A stretch of 64,000 nt of DNA. Source: Candidatus Latescibacterota bacterium. GTDB lineage: Bacteria > Latescibacterota > UBA2968 > UBA8231. The notes beneath the pieces are model-generated. The model worked only from the letters and a program-made list of their open reading frames with translations, had not been told where the DNA came from and did no database searches. A program made the position numbers and the translations under genes. Of this stretch, positions 9,575 to 63,525 are shown in pieces. The stretch spans positions 352,001-416,000 of the forward strand of contig CBDCXV010000009.1 of assembly GCA_965223905.1 (NCBI GenBank), given 5' to 3'. Every line of letters starts with the position of its first letter. Position 1 is the stretch's first letter.

Positions 9575-9803
9575 TGGCTGTGGTTGCGCCGGCCAGCGAG
9601 GGCCGGCTTGTGCGAGTCAGGTGCGGTGACGAGGTCGATGCGGGTCCTGCCGGCGACTACGCCCTGCGCCCGCTACAGGTTGACGGCCGTCGGCTAGTTC
9701 CGCAGCGGTTGGCAAACGGTATGGCGAGCAGCTCGCCGGGGCTCTGCAGGAAGTCGGCCCTCGGGGGGCCGGCGGGACGGGAGGGAGTTGCAGCCGGCGG
9801 AGG

Positions 9804-11690
9804 CTACAGGAATTTGCAGGACTTGACCTCGCGGGAGGAGAGGCGGATGCCCCCCGCCTTCAGGCCGCGAACCGGGTAGTCGGACACGGCGAAAGACTCG
9901 TTCAGCACACGCACCCGGGGCTTCGGCTTGAAGTCGACGGAGACGGTGGCGTCCGGCCTGGTGGTAAGGCGGAGCAGCTTGCAGCCTTCCGGGACCAGCT
10001 CGTACGAGCGGTTGAGGATGAACTTGTCGATGACGCAGCGCTTGATGCAGGGGCGGCCCTTCGGGTCGCGGTAAACGGCGTTGAAGACCGTGTCCTTTTC
10101 GACGAAGCCGCAGTGAAGCATCCCCTTGCCTACGAAGAGCTTGTCGGGAGCGTCGATCACCGAGTAGGAGCCGTCGGCGCGGATCACCAGGACGCGGTCG
10201 TACTGCGACACGTTGAACTGCGCCTGTCCATTCACCTCGTAGCCGAGATAGCCGCTCGCCTTGTCGTAGGCCAGCTTGAGGTCGCGCTTGGCCGCCTCGC
10301 GGACGTCGACCTTTTCCAGGGAGAGTATCTCGGTGCGGCGCGGAAACAGCGGGCGCTGCTTCTCGATCAGGTTTTCGAGAAAGGCGATCGCGTAGGGAAC
10401 GATGTTTTCGAGGTGGTGGGCGACCTGCTTCAACCGCTCTTCGATCTCGTGCGATTCCTTTTTGGCGCGCTCGATGTCGTAGAGCGAGATGCGGCGGATG
10501 GGGATCCTGAGCAGGGTGTCGACGTCGTCGCGGGTAACCTCCCTGCCGATCTCTTCATGGTGGGGCTCCAGGCCGGACAGTACCGCATGCAGGACGGCGT
10601 CGGCGCTCTTCTTGTCCTCGATCTCCTGGTAGATCCGGTTTTCGATGAAGATCCGTTCGAGCGTCCGGGCGTGCAGCCTGTCCTCGAGCCGGCCTCGCTC
10701 CACCCCCAGCTCGGCCTTCAGGATGTCGACGAGCCGGTCGACGTTGTGCCGCAGGATCTCGCCGACGCCCATTTCCCGCGGTTTGTCGCCGTCGATCACC
10801 ACCGGGTTGCAGGACAGGGACAGCTCGCAATCGGTGAAGGCGTAAAGCGCGTCGACCACCTCCTGGCCGTAGACGCCGCGCGGCAGCTTGATCTCGATCT
10901 CGACGTTCTCGGCGGTGTAGTCGTGAATGCTGGAGATCCTGACCTTGTTCTTGCGGGCGGCGTCCTCGATCGAGGCGATCAGCAGCTCCGTCGTCGTGCC
11001 GTAGGGGATCTCGGTGATGACGATCCGCTTGGGATCGGACAGGTCCATGCGCGCCCGCACCAGCACCTTGCCGGTGCCGTCGGCGTACTGCGACACGTCG
11101 GCCATGCCCGCCGTCCGGAAATCCGGGAGGAGCTCGAACTCCCCGTCCTTCATGTAGGCGACCTGCGCCTCGAGCAGCTCGATCAGGTTGTGCGGCAGGA
11201 TGCGCGTCGCCATGCCGACGGCGATCCCTTCGGCTCCCTGCGCCAGCAGCACCGGTAACTTCGCCGGCAGGATCACCGGCTCCTTGTTGCGACCGTCGTA
11301 CGAGTCGACGTACTCGGTGATATCGGGATCGAACAGGACCTCGGAGGCGAGAGGGGACAGGCGGCACTCGATGTAGCGGGCCGCGGAAGCCATGTCGCCG
11401 GTGTAGATGTTGCCGAAGTTCCCCTGCCGGTCGATGAACAGCTCCTTGTTCGCCAGCACGACGAGGGCCGAGTAGATCGAGGCGTCGCCGTGCGGGTGGT
11501 ATCTCATCGTGTGGCCGACGACGTTGGCGACCTTGTGAAACTTGCCGTCGTCGAGCTCGAACAGGGCGTGCAGGATGCGCCGCTGCACCGGTTTGAGTCC
11601 GTCGTCGACGTGTGGGATGGCGCGGTACTTGATCGCGTACGAGGCGTACTCGACGAAGTTCTTCTCGTACAGGGTGTCTACGTAAGCCAT
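9804..11690 (-). CDS. parC: DNA topoisomerase IV subunit A
   Basis: DGLKPVQRR, YHPHGD, catalytic AARYIE, GIAVGMAT; short CTD and no GyrA box seen. Confidence 0.88.
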   Translation of the reverse strand: MAYVDTLYEKNFVEYASYAIKYRAIPHVDDGLKPVQRRILHALFELDDGKFHKVANVVGHTMRYHPHGDASIYSALVVLANKELFIDRQGNFGNIYTGDMASAARYIECRLSPLASEVLFDPDITEYVDSYDGRNKEPVILPAKLPVLLAQGAEGIAVGMATRILPHNLIELLEAQVAYMKDGEFELLPDFRTAGMADVSQYADGTGKVLVRARMDLSDPKRIVITEIPYGTTTELLIASIEDAARKNKVRISSIHDYTAENVEIEIKLPRGVYGQEVVDALYAFTDCELSLSCNPVVIDGDKPREMGVGEILRHNVDRLVDILKAELGVERGRLEDRLHARTLERIFIENRIYQEIEDKKSADAVLHAVLSGLEPHHEEIGREVTRDDVDTLLRIPIRRISLYDIERAKKESHEIEERLKQVAHHLENIVPYAIAFLENLIEKQRPLFPRRTEILSLEKVDVREAAKRDLKLAYDKASGYLGYEVNGQAQFNVSQYDRVLVIRADGSYSVIDAPDKLFVGKGMLHCGFVEKDTVFNAVYRDPKGRPCIKRCVIDKFILNRSYELVPEGCKLLRLTTRPDATVSVDFKPKPRVRVLNESFAVSDYPVRGLKAGGIRLSSREVKSCKFL

Positions 11691-22631: not shown

Positions 22632-23205
22632 TCATCTGTCGCGGAAGCCTTTGCCGTCCAGGATCTTCCGGGCGTACTTCCCGACTCGTGCGGCGCGGGT
22701 CTTGGCTTGCCTGGCACCTGAGAAGTACAGGTTGTACTCCCGCTGGCGACCGGGGGTCAGCGACTCGAAGCAGCCTTCAACGCCGGGTCCTGGTCCAGGC
22801 GACTCTGGAGCTCCGCGACCAGGAGGAGCTCGGGGGCCGGGCCCACCTTCAGGCCCGCCTCCTCAACACCGATGGCCTCGTCGATGTATGCCTTGACGGT
22901 GTCGGCCAGCCGGGCAACGTCCTCGACCGAGGTGAACGGGATCCGGCGAGCTGACCGTGAGTTCGGCCGTTGCTCCTCGAGAACGCCTTCAGGATCATTC
23001 AACAGGGAACCCTTGAAGAACTGAGGGCAAGGAACTCCTTCATCTCCTGGAGGATGACGATGTTCCTGCCCTCATGGCTATAGCAGGGTTTGCGCCACTT
23101 GATCTCCTCGGTCAACCCACAGCTTAGCAGGATAGGCCGCAGCCGGGTCATCTCCTCCGGCCACTTCTCGGACCGTCTGATGCAGGCATCAACCTTGGGG
23201 TTCAT
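22632..23205 (-). pseudogene. YdeI (DUF1801 + OmdA) family protein, two frameshifts
   Basis: MNPKVD...LTEEIKWRKPCY | FFKGSLLNDPEGVL...SARRIPFT | FESLTPGRQREY..YFSGAKQARTR...GKGFRDR*. Confidence 0.85.
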
Positions 23206-23222
23206 GACCACTCCGATTTTCC

Positions 23223-23285
23223 GTGGACATCAGCGAATGCGCGGCCTGTGGTGGTCGCCTGAAAATCATCGTCCATCTGGTAATC
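23223..23285 (+). mobile_element. Short remnant resembling the C-terminal Zn-ribbon of IS91/ISCR-type transposases
   Basis: VDISECAACGGRLKII resembles the D...C..CGG.L.II tail; sits at the boundary of an AT-richer segment. Confidence 0.45.
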
Positions 23286-26700: not shown

Positions 26701-26729
26701 TTGATGTCCTGACGTTATAACGCTACGTT
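26701..26729 (+). promoter_or_regulatory. Putative sigma70 promoter with palindromic operator for the TA operon (probably leaderless)
   Basis: TTGATG-17-TACGTT, spacer palindrome CGTTATAACG, ATG 7 nt after the -10. Confidence 0.55.
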
Positions 26730-26736
26730 CATCGTT

Positions 26737-26970
26737 ATGACGGATACTACGAAGAGAAGCACGGTGTATTTCGATCGATCGATTCACCGGGCGCTGCGGT
26801 TGAAGGCGGCTGAAACGGATCGGTCGATTTCTGATCTGGTCAACGACGCTGTGCGCCTGTCACTGGCGGAAGATGCAGAGGATCTGGCGGCATTCGAAGA
26901 TCGTGCTGCGGAGACCGATCTCGCATTCGAGGATGTGTTGAAGTCTCTGAAGCGCAGTGGCAAGATATAA
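26737..26970 (+). CDS. CopG/ribbon-helix-helix antitoxin
   Basis: KRSTVYFD..IHRALRLKAAET..SISDLVNDAVR, acidic tail; overlaps relE. Confidence 0.85.
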   Translation: MTDTTKRSTVYFDRSIHRALRLKAAETDRSISDLVNDAVRLSLAEDAEDLAAFEDRAAETDLAFEDVLKSLKRSGKI

Positions 26971-27217
26971 CCTTCGGATCAAGCCCTCTGCGATCCGAGA
27001 AATTGAGGCGATCCCCCTGAAAAGGGTGCGTCAGCGGATCGTCCGGCGAATCCGCTCACTCGCCGATGACCCGCGCCCTACGGGTTGTGAGAAACTATCT
27101 GGCAAGGAGCGCTATCGGGTCCGGCAGGGTCAGTATCGCATCGTCTACTCGATCGAGGATCGAGAGCTTGTCATCTACGTCGTAAAGGCAGGTCACCGTT
27201 CGAGTGTCTACCGGTAA
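26957..27217 (+). CDS. Type II toxin, RelE/ParE family
   Basis: DPRP.GCEKL, YRVRQGQYRIVY, GHR..VYR. Confidence 0.9.
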   Translation: MARYNLRIKPSAIREIEAIPLKRVRQRIVRRIRSLADDPRPTGCEKLSGKERYRVRQGQYRIVYSIEDRELVIYVVKAGHRSSVYR

Positions 27218-29988: not shown

Positions 29989-30085
29989 TTACACATCGCG
30001 AAAGGCCCTTTCCAGGGCAGCGACATCCAGCTTCTTCATCTGCAGAAAGGCCGCGGTGGCGCGCTCGAACGCCGCTGCATCGCTA
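29989..30085 (-). pseudogene. C-terminal remnant of a VOC/PhnB (3-demethylubiquinone-9 methyltransferase-like) gene
   Basis: RATAAFLQMKKLDVAALERAF* resembles the family's C-terminal helix. Confidence 0.5.
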
Positions 30086-30122
30086 CTGTTCCTCTCACTG
30101 AAGGGACCGAAAGCGTGCGGGA

Positions 30123-31108
30123 TCAAGGTGCACCGCGCTCTTTCAGGAGCGCTGCCGCCCGGGTCGCGCCGCCGAACTCCGCCCAACCCAGGGGGGTACC
30201 GCCGTGCGTTCCGTCGACGACGGTGGCGTCGGCACCGCGGTCCAGCAGCAGCTTCACGCAGCCCACCGCGTCGTGTTGGGCCGCCAGGTGCATGGCGACC
30301 GCGCGCACGCCGTGTCCCTCGCCGCCCCAGTCGTGGCGCAGATCCGGATCGGCGCCGTGATCGAGAAGCCAGGCCGCGGCTTCCACCTTGTCGCTGTAGC
30401 AGGCCCACAGCAGCGGCGTGCCGCGGAACGGGTTGGCGTTGACCCTGGCGCCACGGGCTACGAGCTCGGCCATCCTGCCGCACTGGTTGTTCCGCGCCGC
30501 CCACGACAGGGCCTCGTCGACGACCTCCTGGCGCTCGAGCGTCCTGTTCCAGTCGGGGAAGAACACCGGGGCGTAGAAGCCCAGGCCTTCCCGCGCGGCA
30601 GGCGTCAGCTCGCTCCCCTTGAAGAACCTGCCGACGCCGGCGCCAAGGGCCGAGGCGGCGCGCAGGTTGTCCGGGTACACCGGCGTCAGCACCTCGCCCA
30701 TGCAGGCCTTGGCATAGAACAAGGCGTACGACAGGGGAGAACCGCCCTCTTTTCCGTAAGCCTCGGCACCGACGGAGGCCCCGGCCCGCACCAGGCGGGC
30801 GCCGAGGTCGGTGTGGCCCGCCATGGCGGCGGTGTGCAGCGGCGTCCAACCGTCGTTGTCGGCCGCGGAAGGGTCGGTGCCTGCGGCCAGGATCATGTCC
30901 ACGGCCGCGTGCTGCTGCCGGGTGCCGGGATCGAGAGGAATGGCGATGTCGCCGGTGGCCGCGCGGCAGGCCAGATCGAGCAGGCTGCGCCCGGCAGCAT
31001 CGGCGGCGGCGGTTGCGGAAGGAGAATCGGCAAGGATGGCCGCGAGGGACTCGAGATCGCCCGCACGGGCGGCCGTTGCCGCCTCTGCGTCAGTGCGTCT
31101 TCAGCCAC
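30123..31108 (-). pseudogene. Ankyrin repeat protein with a 1-nt frameshift near its 5' end
   Basis: DGWTPLHTAAMAGH, GSPLSYA, GTPLLWA, GTPLGWA; GTG 31108 with SD is out of frame with AATAARAGDLESL (shift near 31085). Confidence 0.78.
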
Positions 31109-31232
31109 GCCGGTCTCCCCTGGTCGGGGGGCTTCCGCATCACCTCGGGAACTCCTTGCCAAAAAGGGGATGAAGCGCCGGGCACGAGCTCGAATGCTTC
31201 GAGTTCCACGTCCGGCAAAAGCGGAGCCGCGT

Positions 31233-31529
31233 TTAGTTCCGCCCTTGCCGAACTTCCCGCCAAAGCCTCACGGCCAGCGGGAAGTCGCCGTCCCTGAGAG
31301 CGACCAGAGCCAGCACCTTGAGGGAATCGCGGGATCGGTGGAGGGCGCAGGCGCGCTGAGCGCAGGCGCGGGCTCGCGTGCTGCAACCGCGTTCAAGCGC
31401 CGCACGTGCGGATCGCCGTTGGCGGTCTGCGGCCTGTTCGACCGCCAGCACCTGGCGCAAATCGGTCTGGCAGCGATGGCAGCAAAGGCCCCCCTGGTAC
31501 CGGGCCCTGCAGGTCGGACAGCGTTCCAC
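31233..31529 (-). CDS. Small Zn-ribbon + TPR-like protein (last gene of Hsp70 operon)
   Basis: CPTC...CHRC then helical repeat; starts 5 bp after the Hsp70 stop. Confidence 0.72.
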   Translation of the reverse strand: MERCPTCRARYQGGLCCHRCQTDLRQVLAVEQAADRQRRSARAALERGCSTRARACAQRACALHRSRDSLKVLALVALRDGDFPLAVRLWREVRQGRN

Positions 31530-31534
31530 GCAGG

Positions 31535-33277
31535 CTATTCCAGATAGAAGAGAATCTCGTCGAGTTCCTGCCTGCAGGCAGCGACCTTTTCCGCCTGCCC
31601 TTCCCTCAGGGCATCGCGCAGATCCTCCATGAGATTGACGATCTCTTCGCGATCCTGGGCCGGGGCGGTATCGAGAGCTTTTTCAGCTCGTTCCAGGGTG
31701 TCCTTGACCTCATCGGGCGCCTCGACGCGGCCGACCTCCTCCACTGGTGTGGCTTCCTCTACCCCCCAGAGTGCCTCGACCCGCTTCCTGGATGCGCTGA
31801 GTTCTTCTTCAGTGGAACGCCCCATGGCGTCTTCCACTACACCGTGGATTTCCCGGCCGGTCGCCCGTTCGACTGCGTGAATTTCCAGGAGGCCGTCGAG
31901 ATCCAGACTGTAGGTAAAGAGAATCCCCTGCTCCTGGGCGCCTTTCTGCTGGTTCAAGTCGCCAAAGTGGAAGGTGCCGATCTCCACGTTCTTCAAGGCG
32001 TCCGGATCTTCTCCTTGATAGACCTTGATCTCCACGCTTTCCTGATGTTCGTGCATGGTGAAGAATACTTCCGTCCGGGTAGCCGGGAGTCTGGCGTTGC
32101 GCCGGATGAGGGGAATGAACTGGTGAGCGTAAGGCATACCGTAGAGTTCCCCGACGGCACTGGTGCCGAAAGTATAGGGCGTGATATCGACGAGGACGGC
32201 CTGCACCTCCTGCCCCGTCTCGATCCCCGCCTGCACCGCAGCCCCCAGCGCCACGCACAAATCCGGGTCCACGCCGCCGTGCGGCTCCTGCCCGAGTCGC
32301 TCCGAAAGGAGTTGGACAATGCGCGGAATGCGGGTCGAACCTCCCACCAGCAGAATGCGGTCGAGCTGGCTCGGGCGCACATCGGCGTCGTTGAGCGCCG
32401 TAGTAACAGCCTGCATGGTGCGGGCCAGCGGTTCTTCCAGCGCGCGCTCAAAGTCGTCGCGGCTCAGTTCGCAGGAAAGATGCAGGGCCTCGCCGTTGAC
32501 CGAAGCGACGTGGTCTTCCTCCACGCAGGCGTACGGCTGATGGGAGAGTTCGATTTTGGCTCTTTCCGCCGCCTGCCGCAGCCGCGCCTGCAAAAGCCGG
32601 TTCCCGCGGCTGTCCGCAAGGCCCAGTTCGGTTTCGATGTGGGTGTTGAGGCGCTCGAGGAGGACCTGATCGAAATCGTCGCCCCCCAGGTGGTTGTCCC
32701 CGGTGGAAGCCAAGACCTCAACCACCCCTGCTTCCATGCTCACCACCGAGACGTCGAAGGTGCCCCCGCCTAGATCGTACACGAGGATTTTGCGGTGTCC
32801 CTCGCTGCTGCTTTCGTAACTGAGCGCAGCGGCGGTAGGCTCGTTGATAATCCGCACCACCTCCAGGCCGGCGAGATCGCCGGCTTCCCGGGTGGCCTGC
32901 CGCTGGGCATCGGTGAAATAGGCCGGTACCGTGATGACGGCCTTGGACACGGGCCGGCCCAGAGCCGAGCTCGCCCGCTCTTTGAGCGCCTTGAGAATAA
33001 AGGCAGAAATCTCCTGCGGCCTGTATTCCTCCGCTCCCATCGGCACCTTGGTCTCGGAACCCATCAGGCGCTTGATGGAAAGCACCGTGCGCTCAGGGGC
33101 GACCGCGTACTGATTGCGGGCCTGGTGCCCGATGATGACCTGCCCCGTCTCATCGAGCCCCACACACGAAGGCAGAATCGCTTCATCCCCCTCCCGGACG
33201 ATCCGGGGCGTCCCCCCGGAAATGACCGCCACTTCCGAGTTGGTCGTGCCCAGGTCAATACCGATAATCGGTTCCAT
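31535..33277 (-). CDS. Hsp70 family chaperone (specialised DnaK paralogue)
   Basis: GIDLGTTNS, TVPAYF, NEPTAAA, DLGGGTFD, LVGGSTRIP, linker VLVDITP; short lid. Confidence 0.95.
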   Translation of the reverse strand: MEPIIGIDLGTTNSEVAVISGGTPRIVREGDEAILPSCVGLDETGQVIIGHQARNQYAVAPERTVLSIKRLMGSETKVPMGAEEYRPQEISAFILKALKERASSALGRPVSKAVITVPAYFTDAQRQATREAGDLAGLEVVRIINEPTAAALSYESSSEGHRKILVYDLGGGTFDVSVVSMEAGVVEVLASTGDNHLGGDDFDQVLLERLNTHIETELGLADSRGNRLLQARLRQAAERAKIELSHQPYACVEEDHVASVNGEALHLSCELSRDDFERALEEPLARTMQAVTTALNDADVRPSQLDRILLVGGSTRIPRIVQLLSERLGQEPHGGVDPDLCVALGAAVQAGIETGQEVQAVLVDITPYTFGTSAVGELYGMPYAHQFIPLIRRNARLPATRTEVFFTMHEHQESVEIKVYQGEDPDALKNVEIGTFHFGDLNQQKGAQEQGILFTYSLDLDGLLEIHAVERATGREIHGVVEDAMGRSTEEELSASRKRVEALWGVEEATPVEEVGRVEAPDEVKDTLERAEKALDTAPAQDREEIVNLMEDLRDALREGQAEKVAACRQELDEILFYLE

Positions 33278-33281
33278 GGAA

Positions 33282-33950
33282 TCACTCCTTCAGGTCGAGA
33301 CGGTTGACGGCTACCTCGGCCAGGCGCAGTACCTGGCCGTCTCGCGTAAAACCGCTGAGAAACTCCTCGACGACCACATTGTCGGCGAGTTGGGCGACCC
33401 GGCGCGTCTCCACCGACCGCATGGTGCGGGCATCGAAGGGATGCCCTACGGTCGGCAAGAGCTGGACGCCGAAACCACCCAGCATCCGGTCGAAGCGTCT
33501 GAGAGCCAATTCATAGCCTTGCACCACCCCGGCAATCCCCGGTGCGCGGCGCCGGAACAGCAGCGGCGGTCGACGCAGTTCGCCTGCCGCCGCCCGGCCT
33601 CGCACCAAAGCGTCGCGCACCTCGAAAAAAGGCCGCAGGCAGCGATCCTCGGCCGCCCTGGCGACGCGCTGCTCGAAGGATGCCAGGTCTTCTTCCCGGT
33701 GCTGCGCCCAGTCCGCGACCGTTTCGTATAGAGCGCCCGCCCTGGTCAACTCCCGGCCAACTCTGGCCTGCTCCCGGTTCTGCAGGCGGGTCTCCTGCCG
33801 CAGGGCGGCAATTTCTGCGAACAGGTCGCGCAGGTCGCACTCGGCGGTTTCCCCGGCATCCGCCGCTGGAGGGTCCCCGGTCCACTCCTCCAGCCACTGC
33901 CCGAAATCCGCCAGCGCCTGTTGCTTCCAGTCGTCGCCCGGCCTACCCAT
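33282..33950 (-). CDS. grpE: Nucleotide exchange factor GrpE paralogue
   Basis: Coiled coil, VGHPFD, VVEEFLSGF...VLRLAEVAV. Confidence 0.82.
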   Translation of the reverse strand: MGRPGDDWKQQALADFGQWLEEWTGDPPAADAGETAECDLRDLFAEIAALRQETRLQNREQARVGRELTRAGALYETVADWAQHREEDLASFEQRVARAAEDRCLRPFFEVRDALVRGRAAAGELRRPPLLFRRRAPGIAGVVQGYELALRRFDRMLGGFGVQLLPTVGHPFDARTMRSVETRRVAQLADNVVVEEFLSGFTRDGQVLRLAEVAVNRLDLKE

Positions 33951-34269
33951 CGCTGCCGTTGCCTTTCACCGGCACCTTGCCCTCCGCAGCAAGGAGCGTT
34001 TTCAAGCCCGGTGTCCTGCCCCGGGCCGGCCGCGCCTGGACCAATGCCTTGAGAGCGAGTTCAAATTCGCCGTACCGGGCCATCCCGAAGATGGCGGTTT
34101 CCACTCGCGAGCGGTCGTCCTTCAAGGCGTCGTATGCGGCGGCAATTTGCTGGAAGCGCTGCGGGTTCCGGCCGGGTGGATGGGTGCGGACCAGCTGCAA
34201 ATAGCGCTGGCGAATCTCTGCCTGGGAGGCGGTCGGAGAAAGCCCCAGGACCAGGTAATGAGCCAGCAT
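33943..34269 (-). CDS. J-domain protein with atypical HPP motif
   Basis: YLVLGL..TAS.AEIRQRY..LV..HPP...FQQIAAAYDAL. Confidence 0.85.
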   Translation of the reverse strand: MLAHYLVLGLSPTASQAEIRQRYLQLVRTHPPGRNPQRFQQIAAAYDALKDDRSRVETAIFGMARYGEFELALKALVQARPARGRTPGLKTLLAAEGKVPVKGNGSDG

Positions 34270-34289
34270 GTCTCAGCTCCTCGACGAGG

Positions 34290-36932
34290 TCATTTCTTTT
34301 TACGGGCGAAGAGTAAAAAGAACACTTCCGGCGATAGCGAGTCGCTCAGATTCTCTGCCTCGCACTCGCGGGCGATCCGTTCCAGGTCTCGCCGCGTCTC
34401 AGGACTGGATCTGAAATCGCCGGCAAATTCCTTGAGTGCGGACAGGGGGGCTCCTCGCAGGTTGTTTTCATCGATGATGTCTTCCAGCTCGAACAGTTCT
34501 TCTTCTATACGGCTGCCGCCCGGATCCGGAAACGCCGGAGCCCCGGCCCCGTCGCTGAGCGGCCCGCCCGTCCCGCCGAGGAGGTCCAGCGGAAACCCAC
34601 CCCCGAACAGGGCCAAGGGCAAGTCGAGCAGGTCAAAGCGGAACTCCTGCAGGGCCTTCCGCAAGGGGCCGTACACGTTGCCGGCGAGCCGCGCCGCAGC
34701 CGCCCGCAGCCGCGTCTGGTCGGCGGCATCGGCCGCGTCGAGGACTTCCATAAAGCGCCTCGAATCGTAGTCCTGGCCCTCCTGGTAGCGAATCACCGCC
34801 AGGTAGAACAGCAGCAGCCGGTCGCGTCGGGCCTTTTTGCCGCCCCGCAGGCGGCGGTCTATTTCGGCGCGGACCGGAGCGAGCTCGTCGCAGGCCATCA
34901 GGATATCGAAAAAGGCCAGCAGGACATCCCCTTCGAGGCGCTCCATGAGTGCCGGCCACCACTCGGCGAGGACCGGAGCCGTCTGCAGGCGTTCGTAGAG
35001 GATGTGGAAGTCAGCCGGCAAGGGGGCGACGAGCTCGAGTATTTCGTCGGGGCCGAGTTTGTCCAGGGCGGTTGATTGCCGGCGGAGCAACACCTTCAGG
35101 GCACTTGCCATTTCGGGCGCGACGTTTTTGACATGGCTGTTTTCCGCCAGGTCGTGGAGCAGCAGGGCCAACGTCCTGAGCCGGGCACCGGGCGGCAGGC
35201 ACTCCAGGTGGGGAGCGACGATCTCGGCGGCGTCCCCGCCGGCGGATACAATCGCCAGAAGAAGACGCTTCACCCGCAAGACCAGAGCCAGCCGCGGACG
35301 CTCCAGGTTCCCGGCGCGCTGGAGGTCCCTGTCGGCCAACTCGAACCTTCCGCGCTTGCGGCTCTGATCGGCGGATTTGAGGAAGCCGATGGCCTGCATA
35401 TCCAGAAGACGCTCGTCGTGGGGAGCCCGCCGCCGGCCCTCAGCCAGCGCTTTTTCGGCGCGCCGGTACGCATTCCTGGCATAGTGGAGGGCCGCCAGTT
35501 CCAGATGGGGGTCCGGATCGTCGGGGAAGCGGGCGGCCATATCGTCCAAGGTCTTTTCGAAGCTTGACCGGTACTCGGGGTGGCCCCGCAGCAGACCGAG
35601 GAGAAAGCGATAGCCGTCGCGGTTGCCGGGGTCTGCCGCGAGGCTGGCGGTCATCAACCGGGCCAACAACATCCCGGGATCTCCGAGCGGTTCGTTTATC
35701 AAGGCCGCGAGACACTCTACCGTTTCGGAAGGCAGGTGGTGGGGCTGAAGACCGACCTTGTCAGCGGTCCGGGCAAGGCCCTCCAGCACGCGGCCACGGG
35801 CCAGGGCCCGGTCAGGCGCATGGGGAAACACCATGGGTAGCTGGTTGAGATACAAAGCAGCCGGCGTGGGATCCCACATGTGGGGAACTATCTGCTGGAA
35901 CAGCATGCCGATCTGGGCGATGGCACCAGGCACCCGTTCAGCCGGCAGGAGCCGGCTGGCCAGGCGGGGGAGGGAATCGATGGGCACTTTGTTCTGGGGA
36001 AGGGCCAGACCAACCACCTGCAGCAGGGCGATCCGGGCCTGGAGAGGCTCTTCGGGGTAAATGGCAGCGGCCAGGCCGGGAACAAGTCGTTCAATATCGC
36101 GCAGACGCCCTTTGTGGATCGCTTCGCCCAGTTGGTCGGCCAAGGCCGCGCTGCCCGTCCCCAGGGCTTGCTGAACGGCCGCCGACCCGCCCTCGCCTTC
36201 GCCGGTGCAATGACGTCTCCATTCGGCGACTGTGCGCGGCAGGGCAAAATCGGCCGGCAACAGGTCGAGAATCCGGAGCAACCCCTCGCTGTCGCCGTTG
36301 CCGAAACACACCATGGCCTTGCAAAACAGACGCCAGGCAGCAAACGGGGAGCGCCGGCTGATTCCTTGCAGCAGGCCGCCGGCCCGCTCCCAGTCCCCGG
36401 CGTCCATGGCTTCAAGGCTCTCCTGGACTGGCGCGGCGTCTCGCCGGAGGGGGTGATCCGCGGCGAGGACTTCGAGGCCCTGCCAGCACCGTTGGACCAC
36501 GAGCAGATCCGCCAGCATCCGCTCGACCTGGAGAATGGGCGGCAATGGGGTCTGCAGATAGTCCGCATATTCCGCCAGTACTTCCGCCCCGTCTGCGTGG
36601 CGGAAGTACTGCACCAGGTCTTCTTCGGCCAGCTGCTGGAAGGAAATGGAGGTTCGGTACTGGGCAGCACCTGCCCGCATCGCACCGGCTTCCTTGGCCA
36701 GGCCCTTTTCCGCCAACTGACGGGCGCGTTGCATGCAGGCACAAAAAAGCAACAGCGGCAGTTCCTCCATCGCGGGATCGCCGTGCTGGGCCTGCCTGAG
36801 CAGGTCGAGGGCTCCGCGTCCATCCCCCTCTGTCAAAGCCTGCCGGGCCTGCGTCAACAGATGCCTGGGCGGAACGCGCCTTTGTTTCAGCCGTTTCCGC
36901 TTTCGATCTCTGCGGCTGTGCTTACCAGGCAT
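34290..36932 (-). CDS. Large helical-repeat/TPR-like protein of unknown function
   Basis: About 880 aa, Leu/Ala-rich helices, TPR-like ARFPDDPDPHLELAALHY...AEKAL...APHD; ATG 36932 lies 1 bp after the upstream stop. Confidence 0.78.
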   Translation of the reverse strand: MPGKHSRRDRKRKRLKQRRVPPRHLLTQARQALTEGDGRGALDLLRQAQHGDPAMEELPLLLFCACMQRARQLAEKGLAKEAGAMRAGAAQYRTSISFQQLAEEDLVQYFRHADGAEVLAEYADYLQTPLPPILQVERMLADLLVVQRCWQGLEVLAADHPLRRDAAPVQESLEAMDAGDWERAGGLLQGISRRSPFAAWRLFCKAMVCFGNGDSEGLLRILDLLPADFALPRTVAEWRRHCTGEGEGGSAAVQQALGTGSAALADQLGEAIHKGRLRDIERLVPGLAAAIYPEEPLQARIALLQVVGLALPQNKVPIDSLPRLASRLLPAERVPGAIAQIGMLFQQIVPHMWDPTPAALYLNQLPMVFPHAPDRALARGRVLEGLARTADKVGLQPHHLPSETVECLAALINEPLGDPGMLLARLMTASLAADPGNRDGYRFLLGLLRGHPEYRSSFEKTLDDMAARFPDDPDPHLELAALHYARNAYRRAEKALAEGRRRAPHDERLLDMQAIGFLKSADQSRKRGRFELADRDLQRAGNLERPRLALVLRVKRLLLAIVSAGGDAAEIVAPHLECLPPGARLRTLALLLHDLAENSHVKNVAPEMASALKVLLRRQSTALDKLGPDEILELVAPLPADFHILYERLQTAPVLAEWWPALMERLEGDVLLAFFDILMACDELAPVRAEIDRRLRGGKKARRDRLLLFYLAVIRYQEGQDYDSRRFMEVLDAADAADQTRLRAAAARLAGNVYGPLRKALQEFRFDLLDLPLALFGGGFPLDLLGGTGGPLSDGAGAPAFPDPGGSRIEEELFELEDIIDENNLRGAPLSALKEFAGDFRSSPETRRDLERIARECEAENLSDSLSPEVFFLLFARKKK

Positions 36933-36933
36933 T

Positions 36934-38172
36934 TTACCCCGTCCGCTCCGCCAGGTTGAGGCAGACGATTTCCTGTTCGTCGCGGAGGAAGAGATGGCCC
37001 CCCGCGAGTGTGGGCAGCGTCCAGCAGCGGCCCTTGAGAGCGGGAAAGCCGGCCTTTTCGACGAAGCCCGCGGGCGTGGCCTCGGCCAGGCCGAGATTGC
37101 CGCGTTCACCCAGGATGACGAGGTGGCCGTCGGCGGCGATCAAAGTGCCCTTGCCGTAGCCCCGGGTCTTCCACTTTTCCGCGCCGGTCCCGGCGTCGAT
37201 GCACTTGAGGATCGAGTTGTCGAAACCGTAGAGGTGGCCCTGGTAGTAGATGGAGGTGGCGAAGTGATTTTTCATTTCCGTATTGCGCCAGATCTCCTTC
37301 ACACTATAGCCGCGGTCTGTGGCGGAGACCTCCACCACGGTGCCGCCCGTGCCGTAGCCGGAGGAGACAAAGAAGCGGTCGGGTGGTATGAAAACCGGGG
37401 TGGCGGCGTTGACGTCGTGCCTGGTCGTCCAGGGGTGTTTCCACAGTACCTGGCCGTTTTGCGGCGCGACCGAGACCAGCCCGTAACCGGTGAAAAACAC
37501 CGCCTGGGGCGTCTGGCCGATGGTGACAGCGATGGGAGAGGAGTAGCCCAGCTTGTCGCTGCCGGTGGTCCAGGCGACCTCGCCGCTGGTTTTGTCAAAG
37601 GCTATCAGCGAATGACCGCCACCGCCGGCTTCGATCAGGACCAGGTCTCCTGCGACCAGAGGCGACGGACAAAAGCCCCAGCGGGCCCTCTTGCTGCCGT
37701 ATTCGCGCACCAGGTCGCGGCTCCATTTTTGAGAGCCGGTCCGACTGTCGAGGGCGTAGAGTTTGCCGTAGGCGCTGGAGACATAGACCGTCGTGTCGTC
37801 GACGGTGGGGGAGGCACGCGGACCGTCGCCGCCCTGCCGTTCCATCAGCATCCCGTCGGTGCGGGTGCGCCACAGCACTTCGCCGTTGCGGGCGTCGAGA
37901 CAGACCGCGTATTCATCCCCGCCGTGGATGTACATCGTATAGATGCGATTGCCGGCTACGGACAACCCGGAAAAACCCTTCCCGCCTTGAACCCGCCAGG
38001 ACTCATGTAACGACAGCTTGTCGCCGAACAGGCCGGTCTCCGACGAAATGCCGTTGCGGTCGGGGCCGAGCCATTGCGGCCAGCCCGCCGACTGCCAGCG
38101 CGACCAATCCTGGGCCAAGGTTGGAAAGGCGCATAAGAGGAGGGTCAGGGCAACTCCCAATATCTTCTTCAT
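36934..38172 (-). CDS. Secreted PQQ-binding-like beta-propeller protein
   Basis: Signal peptide, WPQWLGPDRNG, repeated LDA.TG...W blades. Confidence 0.88.
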   Translation of the reverse strand: MKKILGVALTLLLCAFPTLAQDWSRWQSAGWPQWLGPDRNGISSETGLFGDKLSLHESWRVQGGKGFSGLSVAGNRIYTMYIHGGDEYAVCLDARNGEVLWRTRTDGMLMERQGGDGPRASPTVDDTTVYVSSAYGKLYALDSRTGSQKWSRDLVREYGSKRARWGFCPSPLVAGDLVLIEAGGGGHSLIAFDKTSGEVAWTTGSDKLGYSSPIAVTIGQTPQAVFFTGYGLVSVAPQNGQVLWKHPWTTRHDVNAATPVFIPPDRFFVSSGYGTGGTVVEVSATDRGYSVKEIWRNTEMKNHFATSIYYQGHLYGFDNSILKCIDAGTGAEKWKTRGYGKGTLIAADGHLVILGERGNLGLAEATPAGFVEKAGFPALKGRCWTLPTLAGGHLFLRDEQEIVCLNLAERTG

Positions 38173-38309
38173 TGGACCGCTTCGTTGAGTTGCGGGTGGA
38201 GGTTAAAATTCGGTCGGGCGCGATGGACAGGAGTCGCGCGCTGATGTACAGGTAAAATAAGACACCTTTCCGGACTCTCTGCTCCTCGCGCATGGCCTTG
38301 ACGGGACAC

Positions 38310-38342
38310 AAAAAAACGCGGAGCAGACGAGCTGCCCCGCGT
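38310..38342 (-). terminator. Intrinsic terminator after the Spy/CpxP gene
   Basis: ACGCGGGGCAG-loop-CTGCTCCGCGT followed by a T run on the minus strand. Confidence 0.75.
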
Positions 38343-38367
38343 CGTGAAGGAAAACAGGAACCGGTGC

Positions 38368-48352: not shown

Positions 48353-49024
48353 TCAGGGATTCAGGGAACCCACCCTGATCTTGGCCGAATTGCTGCCCTC
48401 CCCATCCAGGCTGATCCCCACCTGGAGTACGACGCCTCGATTGTACACGGTGACAGCGATTCCCCTTTCCTCGAGAATGCTGGAGAAACCGGCGAACCGC
48501 GCTTCGAGACCGCTGTGTCCGAGCTCCTGTATGGGGCATACGGCGCGTTGGACCGCGATCCCGCGCTTCTCTGCCTCGGCAAGAATAGCCTTTGCATTGG
48601 ACTGGCCGCCGAGGTACTCGCTGGCACCCACGTAGAACTGCGTGGGCAGCGCATTATCGCTCCCGGCATTGGGATCCGCCGTGTTGAGCACGAGAACGGG
48701 GATACCCTCCGCGTGCGCGCGCTCGACGCTCTCCCGGATCGTTTCCGGATCCGGGCAGGTAATTCCGATGCCATTGACCTTGTTTGCGATGGCATCGTCG
48801 AGGAAATCGGGCATATCCTCGATTGAAAAGGTGGGATTGCTCAGGCATTGCACGTCGACATCGTAGCGTTCGGCCGCGTCTTCCATGCCCTTGATCACCA
48901 CGTTCCAGAACGGATTTCCCGGCCCGCCATGCGTGACGAAAGCGAACTTGTAGCGTTCCTGGGCGACTGCGGGGTGCAGACAAGTGAATACAAGAAAAAG
49001 CGCGGGAATACAGCGAATAATCAT
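48353..49024 (-). pseudogene. Sugar ABC transporter periplasmic binding protein, 3'-truncated and orphan
   Basis: Signal peptide, FVTHG...NPFWNVVIKG, GIPVLVLN, YVGASEYLGG, LEARFAG; similarity ends near 48450; no permease or ATPase nearby. Confidence 0.75.
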
Positions 49025-49162
49025 TGGGAACTCCTGTCTCGAAATGATGGCTTCAGAGGGGGACGGAATGTCTCCCTTCAGGCGCTCTCGGGTCAAGATG
49101 CTGACCAACGGCGACCAGGGTTCGGGCCGACCACCGAGTCCCCGCCGGTCCGGGCCCGCGAC

Positions 49163-50925: not shown

Positions 50926-51432
50926 TCAGCAGGTGTCCAGCAGTTTGCGGAGCGCGGCCTTTTCACGGGCATCGACGCTGAGTTTGTACTTCGTCTTCAC
51001 CCGGATGATGGTTCGTGCGAACCAGCATTTATTCCGTCTGGGTGACCAGCCGGCCGCATCCTTGTTGTATTTCCTTCGATTGACGCTCGGCAGGGCCAGA
51101 ACCAGGTTGTCCAGGTCCTGGGCAAACTGTTCGCGTCGAGCATAGGAAGCGCCGCACATACCAGAATCGTGGGCTTCGGACAGGGCCACTACGTGCTCGA
51201 TGTGGCTTTCGTTCAGGCTGGAGAACCGGTACCCGGTATAGCGGGAAACCCTTCCGTCCCGTTTTGCAATCAGGGGTTCAACAGATTGCGGGTAGTAGTA
51301 GTCGGACCGATCGTAGGAACTGCACCGGTATTCCGGCCTCACTGTCAGGGTGTTCAGCTTCCTGGTATCTGAGCAGGAATACCAGGCATAGACCAACAAC
51401 AGCAACACCAAGGCACATACCCAACGATTCAT
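50926..51432 (-). CDS. Exported HNH endonuclease family protein (DUF1524-like)
   Basis: Hydrophobic N-terminus; IEHVVALSEAHDSG, FAQDLDNL, VNRRK, VKTKYKLSVD. Confidence 0.8.
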   Translation of the reverse strand: MNRWVCALVLLLLVYAWYSCSDTRKLNTLTVRPEYRCSSYDRSDYYYPQSVEPLIAKRDGRVSRYTGYRFSSLNESHIEHVVALSEAHDSGMCGASYARREQFAQDLDNLVLALPSVNRRKYNKDAAGWSPRRNKCWFARTIIRVKTKYKLSVDAREKAALRKLLDTC

Positions 51433-51540
51433 CGCTTTTTGTACAAGAAGCCGAGCTGGTGATTCATCCTTTGCTTGAGTCTCCGCAGGACCTTCAGGTC
51501 AATTTCCGGATGGTCCAAGGTGGGTACATCGACTCCTTGT

Positions 51541-52182: not shown

Positions 52183-53349
52183 TCATTCGGGTTCTTCTCT
52201 CTGTGACTCGGGCCTTAAAGTCCTGAATCGCTGGGTGCGGTGGTACTCCAGTGGGGAAATGTGGCGGTCATCAACCAATCGCAAGCGCATCCCCTTGTGC
52301 ACCCCGAGGGCAGCCGCATCGGATCCGGACAAGGCTGGGGAGATGAGGATCTTCCCATTGTCGGCAAAGCTGATCATGCCCACCTCGAACAGCGCGTCCA
52401 TGTGGACAGCCAGCAGCAGTCCGTTGAACAGGTTGGTCCGGTCCTGGATGGATGCCTTCCGCCAGGGGATGATGTGGGCGGCGCGTACCAGGTCCGGGTC
52501 TGTCACCCCCGTCACTGCACAGCTTCCCCAGTGGTCGATGAGTGCATCTCTGAACCGGCCTTGGCCTATGCGAGCCTTCACCACCGCGTCGCGCTCCGTC
52601 GGTCCGAGCTCTTCGTAGTCCCGCACGTCAGGAAGCGCCCCATCCTCCTCCATCTGTCGCCCGATGATCCAGGCAAAGGAGTGGGCGTCAAGGGCCGTGA
52701 CTTCACAGTTCAGTTGTTCCGACAGCAGGGCTTGGAGTTCCAGCAGGATGGCGTTGAACTCCTGGTAGTTCACCCAGGAGCACTTGCCCCTCGCCGAGAA
52801 GTCGATGCCGAGGCGGGGGAGAGACCGTTCGAAGGTCTTGGGGGCGATGGGCAGGAACCGTGTTCGGTCCTTCAGGAACATCAGGTAGGCAAGGAGGGGA
52901 TAGTTCTTCCCGACAATCTCAACGAGATCCTCGAAAGCTTTCCGTGTGTCGCGGTCCCGGTAAAGCCTGAACAGGCAGGCTTCCACTTGGCTGCGTGCCT
53001 CGTCGGAACCAAGGGCAACGTAGAAAAGTTGGTGTGCACGTTTATTCTCACCGCGGCGGCGGTCCCACTGCACAAGGTTGTTGACGGGAATCTCGATTGC
53101 GCTGATAACGGCCTTCAGGATCTGGCCGGTACCGACAGAGGAAGTTTCCCAGTTTCCGAAGTTCAGTGCCTCGTTGCCGACCATGCTGACCTCGAGCTTG
53201 TAGCCTTCCTCCCGACGGATATAGGGGTTGGAGGCAAACGATTCGAAATGCATCCCGCACTTGCGCTCGACGAACTTGAGAAAGGCGTCCAGGTGCTTCT
53301 CGAACAGGTAGGGGTCGATTGAGTGATTGCTGGCGCTCAACGTAGTCAT
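52183..53349 (-). CDS. HNH endonuclease with N-terminal putative recognition domain (type IV restriction-like)
   Basis: ARIGQGRFRDAL, CAVTG, AAHIIPW, NLFNGLLL..HMDALFE.G.ISF. Confidence 0.85.
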   Translation of the reverse strand: MTTLSASNHSIDPYLFEKHLDAFLKFVERKCGMHFESFASNPYIRREEGYKLEVSMVGNEALNFGNWETSSVGTGQILKAVISAIEIPVNNLVQWDRRRGENKRAHQLFYVALGSDEARSQVEACLFRLYRDRDTRKAFEDLVEIVGKNYPLLAYLMFLKDRTRFLPIAPKTFERSLPRLGIDFSARGKCSWVNYQEFNAILLELQALLSEQLNCEVTALDAHSFAWIIGRQMEEDGALPDVRDYEELGPTERDAVVKARIGQGRFRDALIDHWGSCAVTGVTDPDLVRAAHIIPWRKASIQDRTNLFNGLLLAVHMDALFEVGMISFADNGKILISPALSGSDAAALGVHKGMRLRLVDDRHISPLEYHRTQRFRTLRPESQREEPE

Positions 53350-53637
53350 GGTCACTGCCCCTCGTATTGACTTCGACACTTGTATATGAAACTTCGTGGC
53401 TTTCCATCCCCAGGGAACGGATTCCGTGGGTCCGGGTCAAGGAGGGGGTTGCCATGCAGAAACCGCCGCCTGACCCCAAGCCCAGCAGGGGTGAATGTTA
53501 GCCGCGTGACGGGATCAGCGTCCGTTTCCCTACCTTCTTGGTGGTATCATTTCTGCCTCTTCATTTAATAGCACGCAGGGCCAAGAAACGCTGACCTCGC
53601 ATCCGGGGTTGGCCGTTCCCAATCGGAGAGCAGGTCC

Positions 53638-57099
<3,462 letters not shown>

Positions 57100-61415: not shown

Positions 61416-62591
61416 ATGCAAATAACGCAGATCGAAATCAAGAATTACCGCTCCTTCCACCACGCCGTGTTCGGAAATCTCCCCCAGATGACCGCGGTCG
61501 TGGGGGCCAACGGCTCGGGAAAGTCCACGCTGTTCGACGTATTCTCCTTCCTCAAGGACGCACTGTCTCAGAACGTCGCCACGGCCGTGGCAAGACGTGG
61601 TGGATTCCGCGAACTCGTCAGCCGGGGGAAGACAGGGCCAATAGAAATCACGATCAAATTCCGCGAGAGGGAAGGGCCGCTAGCCACCTATCTCTTGCAG
61701 GTTGCCGAGGACCAAGGACGCGTAGTGGTGGACCGCGAGATTCTGCGATACCGGAGGGGCAGCCATGGCAAGCCCTGGCACTTTGTGGATTTCTCGAAGG
61801 GCAAGGGAAATGCAATTACGAATGAGTCGGTTTATGGTGAGGAAGGAGCCGTCGAGGCGCGTGAGGAATACGAGCTTGACGACCCGAGCATTCTGGCGAT
61901 CAAGGGCCTGGGTCAGTTCCGCGAATTCCGGTCCGTTTCGGAGTTTCGCGGGCTCATTGAGAACTGGCATGTCTCGGATTTCCACATTGCCGACGCCCGG
62001 CCCAGCAGCGAGGCCGGGTATGCGGAGCATCTGTCCAGCCGTGGCGATAATGTCGCCCAGGTAGCCCACTATCTCTACGAGAACCACCGCGACCGCTTCG
62101 ACGAGGTGCTGGAGGTTATGAGCCGCCGCGTTCCCGGGGTAAGCGGAGTTGAAGCTCGACCGACAGAGGACGGGCGGCTTGTCTTGCGTTTTCAAGACGG
62201 CAGCTTCAAGGACCCGTTCATTGCCCGTTACGTTTCCGACGGCACGATAAAAATGTTCGCCTATCTCGTGTTGCTGTATGACCCGAAGCCCCATCCCCTG
62301 CTTGCGGTCGAAGAACCCGAAAACCAGCTATACCCCCAATTGCTGACAGAGTTGGCCGAGGAGTTCCGGGACTACGCCCGAAGCGGCGGCCAGGTGTTCG
62401 TTTCGACACACTCCCCCGACTTCCTTAACGGGTTGAAACTGGATGAAATCTTTTGGCTGCTGAAGAAAGACGGCTTCACGACCGTGCACCGGGCGTCCGG
62501 CAGCGATCTGCTTAGAAGGCTTGTCGCAGAGGGAGACTTGCCGGGAGCCCTCTGGAAGCAGGGGCTTTTCGAGGGAGTTGGCCTCGGGTGA
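61416..62591 (+). CDS. ABC-type (AAA_21-like) ATPase
   Basis: GANGSGKS, signature VSDGT, Walker B AVEEPEN, STHS. Confidence 0.9.
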   Translation: MQITQIEIKNYRSFHHAVFGNLPQMTAVVGANGSGKSTLFDVFSFLKDALSQNVATAVARRGGFRELVSRGKTGPIEITIKFREREGPLATYLLQVAEDQGRVVVDREILRYRRGSHGKPWHFVDFSKGKGNAITNESVYGEEGAVEAREEYELDDPSILAIKGLGQFREFRSVSEFRGLIENWHVSDFHIADARPSSEAGYAEHLSSRGDNVAQVAHYLYENHRDRFDEVLEVMSRRVPGVSGVEARPTEDGRLVLRFQDGSFKDPFIARYVSDGTIKMFAYLVLLYDPKPHPLLAVEEPENQLYPQLLTELAEEFRDYARSGGQVFVSTHSPDFLNGLKLDEIFWLLKKDGFTTVHRASGSDLLRRLVAEGDLPGALWKQGLFEGVGLG

Positions 62592-63166: not shown

Positions 63167-63525
63167 ATGGCAATCACGAACCACGAGCGCGTCGGCACGG
63201 CGATGGAGTTGCTCCGCCAGGGACTTGCCCCGTTCGTCGAACGCGAGCTGAACGACAAGGTCAAGAGGAACGCCGTCGACATGGACGTTCTTCGCCGCTT
63301 CGAGATCGACAAGCCGTACCGCGAGTGGGACGCGGCTGCCCTCCTCCGGCTGATGGGGGGATAACTGGAGGGACGTCTTCAGCGACACCCTCGGCTACAC
63401 AGAGCGCAGCCTGGTTTCCGAGCTGCGTGAATGGCGCAACAAGTGGGCGCACCAGGAGCGCTTCTCCAGCGACGATGCCGACCGCGCCCTTGACTCCGCG
63501 GAGCGTCTTCTCACCGCCGTTTCCC
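63167..63525 (+). pseudogene. 5' remnant of DUF499 ATPase (Swt1-like HEPN N-domain), frameshifted and truncated
   Basis: MAITNHERVG.AMELLRQGLAPFVERE...WDAAALLRLM | NWRDVF...ERSLVSELREWRNKWAHQERFSSDDADRALDS; shift in the G-run at 63355-63360. Confidence 0.8.

Follow-up and report, generated by a model that had tools for sequence, protein, structure and literature searches.

Bacterial Hsp70 paralogues other than HscA, and to a lesser degree HscC, are described in a 2026 review as largely unexplored 'dark matter' (PMC13580251). The present analysis concerns a 64,000 nucleotide (nt) stretch of a Candidatus Latescibacterota genome (GenBank assembly GCA_965223905.1, contig CBDCXV010000009.1, positions 352,001 to 416,000 of the forward strand; hereafter the window), in which a complete Hsp70 is encoded beside a GrpE-type nucleotide exchange factor, a J-like protein without the histidine-proline-aspartate (HPD) motif, a large tetratricopeptide repeat (TPR) solenoid protein (bigTPR) and a small zinc-ribbon protein (ZnR). 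The favoured reading, to which a probability of roughly 0.55 is given, is that these five proteins constitute an autonomous, specialised Hsp70 machine whose genes are inherited and have moved as one unit.

Several described systems share parts of this composition. The Escherichia coli hscC locus is alike in that a specialised Hsp70 lies beside its own class C J proteins and, according to annotation, the Sel1-repeat (TPR-like) proteins YbeQ and YbeT. In strain K-12 (L050, positions 676000–686000), hscC is accompanied by ybeQ, ybeT, genes for two DUF1266 proteins, djlB and djlC. The J domains of DjlB and DjlC have the same short loop between helices II and III as the cassette protein and again a third residue other than aspartate (HPE), and the hidden Markov model (HMM) of the cassette J-like family matches DjlB at 1.7e-7. 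HscA and HscB are likewise a dedicated Hsp70 and a small class C J protein, encoded in an operon with their target at the isc locus. In Myxococcus xanthus, MxDnaK2 (SglK) is a non-housekeeping DnaK paralogue which resembles the cassette Hsp70 in having its own GrpE (MXAN_6672) in the same operon, and which is not heat-induced (PMC11019930). The GAP1-N2 GTPase conflict systems, defined by GTPase and fibronectin type III (FNIII)-repeat proteins and found mainly in actinobacteria and firmicutes, likewise bring together HSP70, GrpE, DnaJ-domain and TPR-repeat components away from the housekeeping operon (Kaur et al., 2020; PMC7159879).

The cassette nevertheless lacks the defining features of the hscC, HscA/HscB and GTPase-centred systems. 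The window Hsp70 is 35% identical to HscC, which does not group with the cassette Hsp70s; there is no GrpE gene in the 10 kb of the hscC locus examined, nor a zinc-ribbon protein or a solenoid of 900 amino acids (aa), and DjlB and DjlC are proteins of about 480 aa in which the H and P of the motif are kept. With respect to HscA/HscB, the window Hsp70 falls below the cut-off of the HscA equivalog TIGR01991 (390.2 vs 708.55 bits), and no isc genes are present in the window or the examined flanks. E. coli HscB keeps the HPD motif and is not matched by the cassette J HMM (E 0.17), and the examined 8 kb of the isc locus have no grpE annotation. The MxDnaK2 operon, compared by description only, is bicistronic, and no J-protein neighbour and no TPR or zinc-ribbon partner is reported for it in the available portion of the source (PMC11019930). 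Finally, neither the cassette nor the 21 flanking proteins scanned contain the GTPase or FNIII domains of the GAP1-N2 systems.

In the window, the cassette forms part of a run of minus-strand genes. The six intact genes at 31233–38172 given in the initial annotation were confirmed by an open reading frame (ORF) listing combined with a codon-position G+C filter. These genes, together with a predicted hairpin upstream of them, are as follows.

36934–38172, minus strand: secreted beta-propeller protein (PQQ_2/BamB-like), 412 aa, with a signal-peptide-like N-terminus visible in the translation
34290–36932, minus strand: bigTPR, large TPR solenoid protein, 880 aa when started at the ATG at 36932 (939 aa if extended to a GTG)
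33943–34269, minus strand: J-like protein, 108 aa, Pfam DnaJ
33282–33950, minus strand: GrpE-type nucleotide exchange factor, 222 aa, Pfam GrpE
31535–33277, minus strand: Hsp70, complete, 580 aa, Pfam HSP70
31233–31529, minus strand: ZnR, zinc-ribbon and two-TPR protein, 98 aa, GTG start
38315–38343, minus strand: terminator-like hairpin with a 12-bp stem (eight G-C pairs) and a T-run, downstream of an LTXXQ gene

Direct reading of the junctions reproduced every spacing given earlier (1, 20, −8, 4 and 5 nt). The propeller stop codon is separated from the bigTPR ATG by 1 nt, and bigTPR from the J-like gene by a 20-nt gap containing GAGGAG. The J-like and GrpE genes overlap by 8 nt (ATGGGTAG); a 4-nt gap, preceded by AAGGAG, lies between GrpE and Hsp70, and a 5-nt gap between Hsp70 and ZnR. 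Pfam assignments of the window proteins were made at E-values of 3.6e-142 (HSP70), 5.3e-15 (GrpE), 5.1e-11 (DnaJ), 2.5e-6 (TPR_19) and 6.6e-36 (PQQ_2).

Conservation of gene order carries the argument for a single unit. A pattern-plus-tblastn scan of one genome per species yielded 47 loci, all from metagenome-assembled genomes (MAGs). The bigTPR homologue is followed by J, GrpE, Hsp70 and ZnR genes, in this order and on one strand, in 38 of the 47, and a further seven (L008, L013, L014, L018, L023, L031 and L032) are consistent with it up to the point at which the contig ends. The short, coupling-type spacings recur too: with starts chosen heuristically, J and GrpE overlap by 8 nt in 33/42 loci, GrpE and Hsp70 lie within 12 nt of each other in 38/38, Hsp70 and ZnR within 30 nt in 33/38, and bigTPR and J within 30 nt in 39/44. 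Because both the five-gene order and these spacings recur, the arrangement is far beyond chance. The loci are labelled as Latescibacterota, Vicinamibacterales/Acidobacteriota, Binatia (Binatota), Spirochaetia, Alpha- and Gammaproteobacteria and, in one record, Syntrophobacterales; the range spans at least seven phylum- or class-level groups. This supports the earlier proposal of a self-contained system in which a specialised Hsp70 is accompanied by a dedicated GrpE, a J protein lacking HPD and two helical partners, and the neighbourhood conservation on which that proposal had been made to depend was found.

The beta-propeller does not belong to this unit. It had been listed as the first of the six closely spaced genes, but a homologue lies beside the core in only one of the 47 loci, L001, the closest relative of the window (89% bigTPR identity). 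Since the five-gene order and spacing recur and the propeller does not, it is regarded as a local neighbour and the five-gene cassette as the conserved element. The LTXXQ, ankyrin and nucleoside-hydrolase genes, considered with the propeller as possible cassette members, were rejected in the same way, as all recur in L001 only; this is also true of the 2-hydroxyacid-dehydrogenase gene. A universal sixth gene was also sought by clustering of all flank ORFs, and no flank family is common to more than six loci; the families that are shared are mostly confined to single clades (five Binatia-type loci, five Spirochaetia loci). The immediate neighbours are unrelated from locus to locus, and include PhyH dioxygenase, hydantoinase A/B, AcrB, DegT aminotransferases, Fic, a BNR/sortilin protein, DUF3604 and AAA_15/21.

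The Hsp70 is complete. It has a nucleotide-binding domain with the ATPase residues, a hydrophobic linker, the beta part of the substrate-binding domain and a helical lid, and the Pfam match reaches profile position 589 of 599. Positions D8, T11, K70, E171, D194, T199, D201, R151, R167, N170, Q378, L391, D393 and P419 are invariant in 39/39 cassette Hsp70s. At the substrate arch (M404, A429) and the lid latch (R467, D540, H544) the residues are not DnaK-like. The lid contains a variable acidic or proline-rich insert, and its last helix is the end of the protein, which finishes in the near-invariant sequence LDEILFYLE without a disordered tail. With the annotated K-12 record as the source of the E. 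coli sequences, identity is 38% to DnaK, 35% to HscA and 35% to HscC; DnaK and HscA are 42% identical to each other.

As had been proposed, the cassette Hsp70s were placed against these three proteins in a tree (IQ-TREE; 41 rows, being 38 cassette sequences plus E. coli DnaK, HscA and HscC). All 38 fall on one side of a branch of length 1.69, with ultrafast bootstrap (UFBoot) support of 95 and SH-aLRT support of 91, and E. coli DnaK and HscA pair with each other (100/99). HscC lies apart from the cassette clade; its placement is unsure because its branch is very long (7.27). Branches between phyla inside the clade are short (0.03–0.17), the row labelled Syntrophobacterales nests within Binatia, and the Rhodobacterales row (L039) is apart from the other Alphaproteobacteria. 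With the three E. coli proteins as its only comparison, the tree hints at horizontal spread.

One cassette Hsp70 was left out of the tree. In the Vicinamibacterales locus L016 (11906–14152), the Hsp70 is 559 aa and has a divergent C-terminus, an Ala/Gly-rich sequence replacing the lid end, and ZnR follows 285 nt later. A frameshift, or decay of the lid-coding part, may be the cause.

The same evidence bears on whether the cassette is simply the main DnaK operon of the genome in an unusual form. A complete Hsp70 with all catalytic residues, in one operon with GrpE and a J-type gene, would fit such an explanation, as would the lack of a canonical dnaK, and indeed of any other Hsp70, within the window or the fetched loci. 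The Hsp70, however, scores well below the NCBIfam DnaK equivalog cut-offs (NF001413, 499.7 vs 648 bits; TIGR02350, 489 vs 822.55 bits), its partner is a J domain alone of 108 aa in which HPD is lost, and one chromosome carries two copies of the cassette. In addition, the Hsp70s cluster across phyla more tightly than would be expected of housekeeping DnaKs, and no CIRCE heat-shock operator was found within the window with up to three mismatches allowed. A housekeeping role is therefore considered highly improbable, and the specialised machine remains the preferred reading.

The J-like protein belongs to the J-domain fold family, with a Pfam DnaJ score of 43 bits against a cut-off of 27.8. It consists of the J domain alone, without a glycine/phenylalanine (G/F) region, zinc finger or client-binding domains, and is far from a class A or B DnaJ (TIGR02349, 32.1 vs 377.2 bits). 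No member of the family has an HPD motif, the third loop residue never being acidic in the 45 sequences compared. The loop reads HPP in 30 of these, among them the window protein, and HRP in 11; YPP, HRT, HRV and TPP occur once each. In the register given by HMM alignment to DnaJ and DjlB, the invariant P32 falls on the P of HPD, and the H and D are replaced by P/R and S/G, respectively. The protein has thus lost the histidine and/or the aspartate, depending on the register adopted. Two arginines of helix II, R20 and R22, are invariant, and the family has a conserved C-terminal tail (TPGLKTLLAAEG in the window) with the motif PGL..LL..E.

D35 of DnaJ is reported to bond to R167 and Q378 of DnaK, and replacement of the H or D of HPD abolished ATPase stimulation in every system tested (Mayer, 2021; PMC8215388). 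The motif is accordingly reported to be needed in every J-domain system examined so far (PMC8215388). The oddest feature of the cassette is that an Hsp70 which keeps the HPD-contacting residues R167, Q378 and P419 is paired with a J-like protein without the motif. This pairing of a complete Hsp70 with an HPD-less J-like protein, seen in 45/45 cases, challenges the HPD rule. ATP hydrolysis might be set off by a non-canonical action of the J-like loop, by substrate alone, or by a housekeeping DnaJ, in which case the J-like protein would be a regulator.

The nucleotide exchange factor is recognizable as GrpE from Pfam (55.9 vs 25.8 bits; residues 92–216), and it is a divergent member of the family, as it falls below every NCBIfam GrpE equivalog cut-off (best 26.3 vs 231).

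The bigTPR protein is predicted to be an enzyme-free TPR superhelix. An AlphaFold2 (AF2) model from a 63-sequence alignment (predicted local distance difference test (pLDDT) 90.5, predicted template modelling score (pTM) 0.70) has about 50 helices and no strands, with a disordered acidic linker at 772–805 and a small C-terminal helical domain at 808–874. Both termini are polybasic. Pfam recognizes a single canonical TPR unit (TPR_19, around residues 455–530) and nothing else, both in the window protein and in 17/20 diverse relatives, the other three giving no match; the most conserved stretch of the protein is at residues ~465–540. No extra domain was found in the longer relatives among these 20. 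Foldseek comparison with the PDB returned long TPR scaffolds only (IFT-A, Ctr9, Ski3, Naa15, OGT, APC subunits and Tom70), at template modelling (TM) scores of 0.12–0.21, which therefore indicate a common repeat type and no specific relative. Specific homology to IFT-A, Ctr9, Ski3 or Naa15 was dropped for the same reason, and a PDB sequence search with the bigTPR profile gave nothing at E<=1.

The protein belongs to a sizeable family. A word-indexed search gave 238 proteins at E<=1e-3, the best 120 of which are 50–99% identical to bigTPR, and an exhaustive search of cluster representatives at 50% identity gave 452 at E<=1e-3 and 169 at E<=1e-30. Full-length matches are mostly 770–1090 aa, with identity down to 24%, and a profile search with a diverse alignment (A2) gave the same near subfamily. 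A distant branch, about 29% identical to the window protein, is found in Desulfonema magnum, Desulfocicer vacuolatum, Candidatus Magnetomorum and other Desulfobacterota; its proteins are all named hypothetical or TPR. Locus L046, also at 29% bigTPR identity, carries the cassette. All named members of the family are called 'hypothetical' or 'TPR', as are the clusters found in the ESM Atlas, which are taken as leads on phyletic range and not as evidence. If the cargo of the scaffold were found, at least 169 protein clusters (E<=1e-30, 50% identity) would gain a function.

These properties could also be read in a simpler way. In that case bigTPR would be hard to fold or dependent on assembly, it would be neither scaffold nor adaptor, and the other four genes would serve just its folding or assembly, in the manner of HscA/HscB and IscU. 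A long solenoid is a plausible client of a chaperone, and specialised Hsp70s do carry a client in their operon, iscU lying beside hscBA in the E. coli isc locus. Moreover, bigTPR is the first gene of the cassette and the fastest-evolving, with a mean pairwise identity of 0.51 compared with 0.73 for Hsp70. On the other hand, the most conserved part of the protein, the stretch at ~465–540, looks like a ligand-binding TPR region and not like a folding problem, and a single client of 880 aa hardly accounts for an entire dedicated cycle with two extra TPR-bearing partners. A purely client role is thus thought unlikely, and the reading of the cassette as a machine in which bigTPR also has a working part is preferred to it.

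The second partner, ZnR, combines a zinc knuckle with a short helical repeat. Residues C4, C7, C17 and C20 are invariant in 25/25 sequences, as is one tryptophan. In the AF2 model (pLDDT 92.7), a knuckle formed by residues 1–23 is followed by four helices, predicted to be two TPR motifs, which superpose on consensus TPRs with a root-mean-square deviation of 1.1–1.9 Å over ~63 residues (E 0.05–0.3, weak values because the query is so short). The Pfam matches to TPR, DZR_2 and Zn_ribbon are weak and all below their cut-offs. When 25 ZnR proteins were compared with Pfam at E<=1, the 25 most-matched of 36 families were TPR and generic zinc-ribbon families, and zf-DNL was not among these 25. A profile search of the PDB with ZnR gave only chance-level matches, the best (0.11) being the bL32m zinc ribbon. 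Look-alikes in the ESM Atlas are 'hypothetical' clusters from Acidobacteriota, Planctomycetota and Thermodesulfobacteriota, and are leads only.

Among many generic TPR fold matches of ZnR are Tah1, Hop TPR2A and FKBP51. With Tom70, matched by bigTPR, these give the cassette some likeness to eukaryotic TPR co-chaperones; the cassette Hsp70 differs in having no EEVD tail, and as the fold matches are generic no homology is claimed. Tah1, Hop and Tom70 are TPR modules that dock Hsp70 or Hsp90. Pam16 is a J-like regulator without HPD, Zim17/Hep1 is a four-cysteine zinc protein that escorts mitochondrial Hsp70, and auxilin-type uncoating is a further eukaryotic Hsp70 parallel. All of these are functional analogies only.

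Taken together, the five proteins suggest a machine that would be dedicated to a TPR scaffold and not to general folding. The bigTPR solenoid would be the platform on which the chaperone works, and possibly also a client that is remodelled. The J-like protein may use helix II to dock on Hsp70, dispensing with the canonical HPD trigger, and its conserved tail may tether Hsp70 to the scaffold or serve as a pseudo-substrate. GrpE would reset the cycle. ZnR could be a minimal TPR co-chaperone or adaptor on Hsp70, the invariant LDEILFYLE lid end being a candidate contact. ATP turnover would serve to assemble or open a TPR-scaffolded complex or to release its cargo. In a bolder and distinctly speculative form, with the odds well against it, the cassettes would represent an unrecognised, horizontally shared class of bacterial Hsp70 machine without an HPD trigger, in which a J-like tether and the ZnR adaptor couple a fully active Hsp70-GrpE cycle to a TPR superhelix of ~900 aa and drive the assembly or disassembly of the scaffold or its cargo, a bacterial counterpart of the eukaryotic TPR-organised and coat-uncoating Hsp70 systems. 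Such a machine may be over-represented among bacteria that have large genomes, are structurally complex or live with hosts (Latescibacterota, Binatia, Vicinamibacterales and Spirochaetia), and possibly among the filamentous or multicellular Desulfobacterota that have the distant bigTPR relatives.

Several points weigh against the picture of an autonomous five-gene machine. The partnerships proposed between the proteins are drawn from gene order and conservation. With the essential H and D missing, the J domain may fail to activate Hsp70 altogether. The loci were collected through bigTPR only and then compared by tblastn with the window proteins, so that the survey covers members of the Hsp70 clade that accompany bigTPR. 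The five-gene rule has one exception among the testable loci, L022, in which none of the other four members was found in the 8 kb downstream of an intact bigTPR (8001–10706; 52% identity over residues 19–877); there the gene that follows is an ORF of 945 aa on the other strand. Another locus, L047, holds just a 90-aa fragment of bigTPR. Finally, the pairwise-distance matrices of the five proteins correlate (r 0.86–0.95; 38 sequences), which fits a unit travelling together, and shared descent alone would give the same result.

Additional or unusual copies of the cassette were also seen. Two nearly identical cassettes, L037 and L038, lie about 410 kb apart with different flanks in one alphaproteobacterial chromosome (OZ243972.1), and two diverged copies, L007 and L008, are present in one gammaproteobacterial MAG. 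L029 and L047 are both in a Vicinamibacterales chromosome (OZ244976.1), which thus has a full cassette plus the bigTPR remnant elsewhere. The Hsp70 of L020, labelled Syntrophobacterales, is almost identical to that of the Binatia locus L044 (branch 0.016), and Binatia-type flanks are shared; this reflects either a very recent transfer or an issue of taxonomic or binning labels.

The duplicated copies and the patchy distribution across phyla, with short inter-phylum Hsp70 branches, raise the question of a conflict or defence module, that is, an immune or stress-sensing system gated by chaperones, akin to those of Kaur et al. (2020). HSP70 and GrpE, together with DnaJ- or TPR-fused proteins, are parts of published conflict systems (PMC7159879). 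A defence-like island lies at 41–64 kb in the window, 3–30 kb from the cassette, and AAA_15/21 genes are found downstream of the cassette in two Spirochaetia loci. A stress or conflict role had been suggested in the initial annotation, but no positive support for it emerged. Pfam reveals no effector domain in any of the five proteins, nor is the GTPase that defines the published systems present. Against the PADLOC-DB v2 defence models the five proteins gave no significant match, the only marginal one being that of Hsp70 to PDC-M61B (E 0.0011), with no passing stretch. The flanks in most lineages are ordinary metabolic genes (PhyH, hydantoinase, AcrB and aminotransferases), tblastn of bigTPR against plasmids and against phages gave no match, and sequence conservation is high for an immune gene. 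The lack of a CIRCE operator in the window likewise lends nothing to a stress response. A conflict role is accordingly regarded as improbable, more so than a purely client role of bigTPR, and the specialised machine is again preferred.

No description of this gene set was found in full-text literature searches, made in a library without most subscription-journal papers and with supplements excluded, so that a description in print is possible. What is judged to be new is the conserved set of partners and the HPD-less J-like component, within a known kind of system, the specialised Hsp70. The cassette is directly testable, because it is clean, widespread and strictly collinear, with a defined set of partners.

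In the window genome, the six genes probably form one transcript, as the terminator-like hairpin precedes the propeller gene and likely marks the upstream boundary of the transcription unit. The hairpin comes from a consensus scan only, which gave 12 sites compared with 8.0 +/- 2.6 in shuffled sequences; that at 38315–38343 has the strongest stem. A sigma-70 promoter scan of 30000–39200 found one site, with 0.8 expected, and Rfam gave no match over the whole window. The window is G+C-rich, with a value of about 0.65 near the cassette.

The surroundings of the cassette had been described as full of broken genes. Several broken ORFs are indeed present, but most neighbouring genes look whole. Those likely to be broken are a DUF1801 gene split over two overlapping frames (22760–23229) and, at 50929–51498, 63354–63836 and 48353–49108, a GmrSD_C-only fragment, a HEPN_Swt1 C-terminal fragment and a truncated periplasmic-binding-protein ORF that covers only profile positions 4–154 of 258. 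At 26713–27214 there is a type II toxin-antitoxin-like pair, in which a small ribbon-helix-helix (RHH) antitoxin-like ORF overlaps a ParE-family toxin ORF. About 330 nt downstream of ZnR, on the same strand, a 259-aa ankyrin-repeat protein is encoded (30123–30902), which is beside the cassette only in L001 and which matches the PADLOC models PDC-M72A and 'Ankyrin', probably via its repeats alone. An IU_nuc_hydro gene lies 2 kb from the window cassette, and rihA, encoding a pyrimidine nucleoside hydrolase, lies beside hscC in E. coli; this is taken as coincidence.

The defence- or mobile-looking island extends from 41507 to 63836, with a lower G+C of 0.56–0.60 at ~46–54 kb and 56–58 kb. It begins with two adjoining STAND-like AAA_22 proteins (41507–42742 and 42735–45338), the second of which has a MarR-type winged helix-turn-helix (wHTH) and TPR_12 repeats. 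A leucine-rich repeat (LRR) protein lies beside a Por_Secre_tail/FlgD_ig ORF (45486–47184), and an Xre HTH is also present. The island also contains an HNH_2 protein (52183–53379), a 1153-aa SNF2-family helicase with a NOV_C domain (53638–57099), DUF488 and NTP_transf_2, and AAA_15/21 with DUF4276 at 61416–63160.

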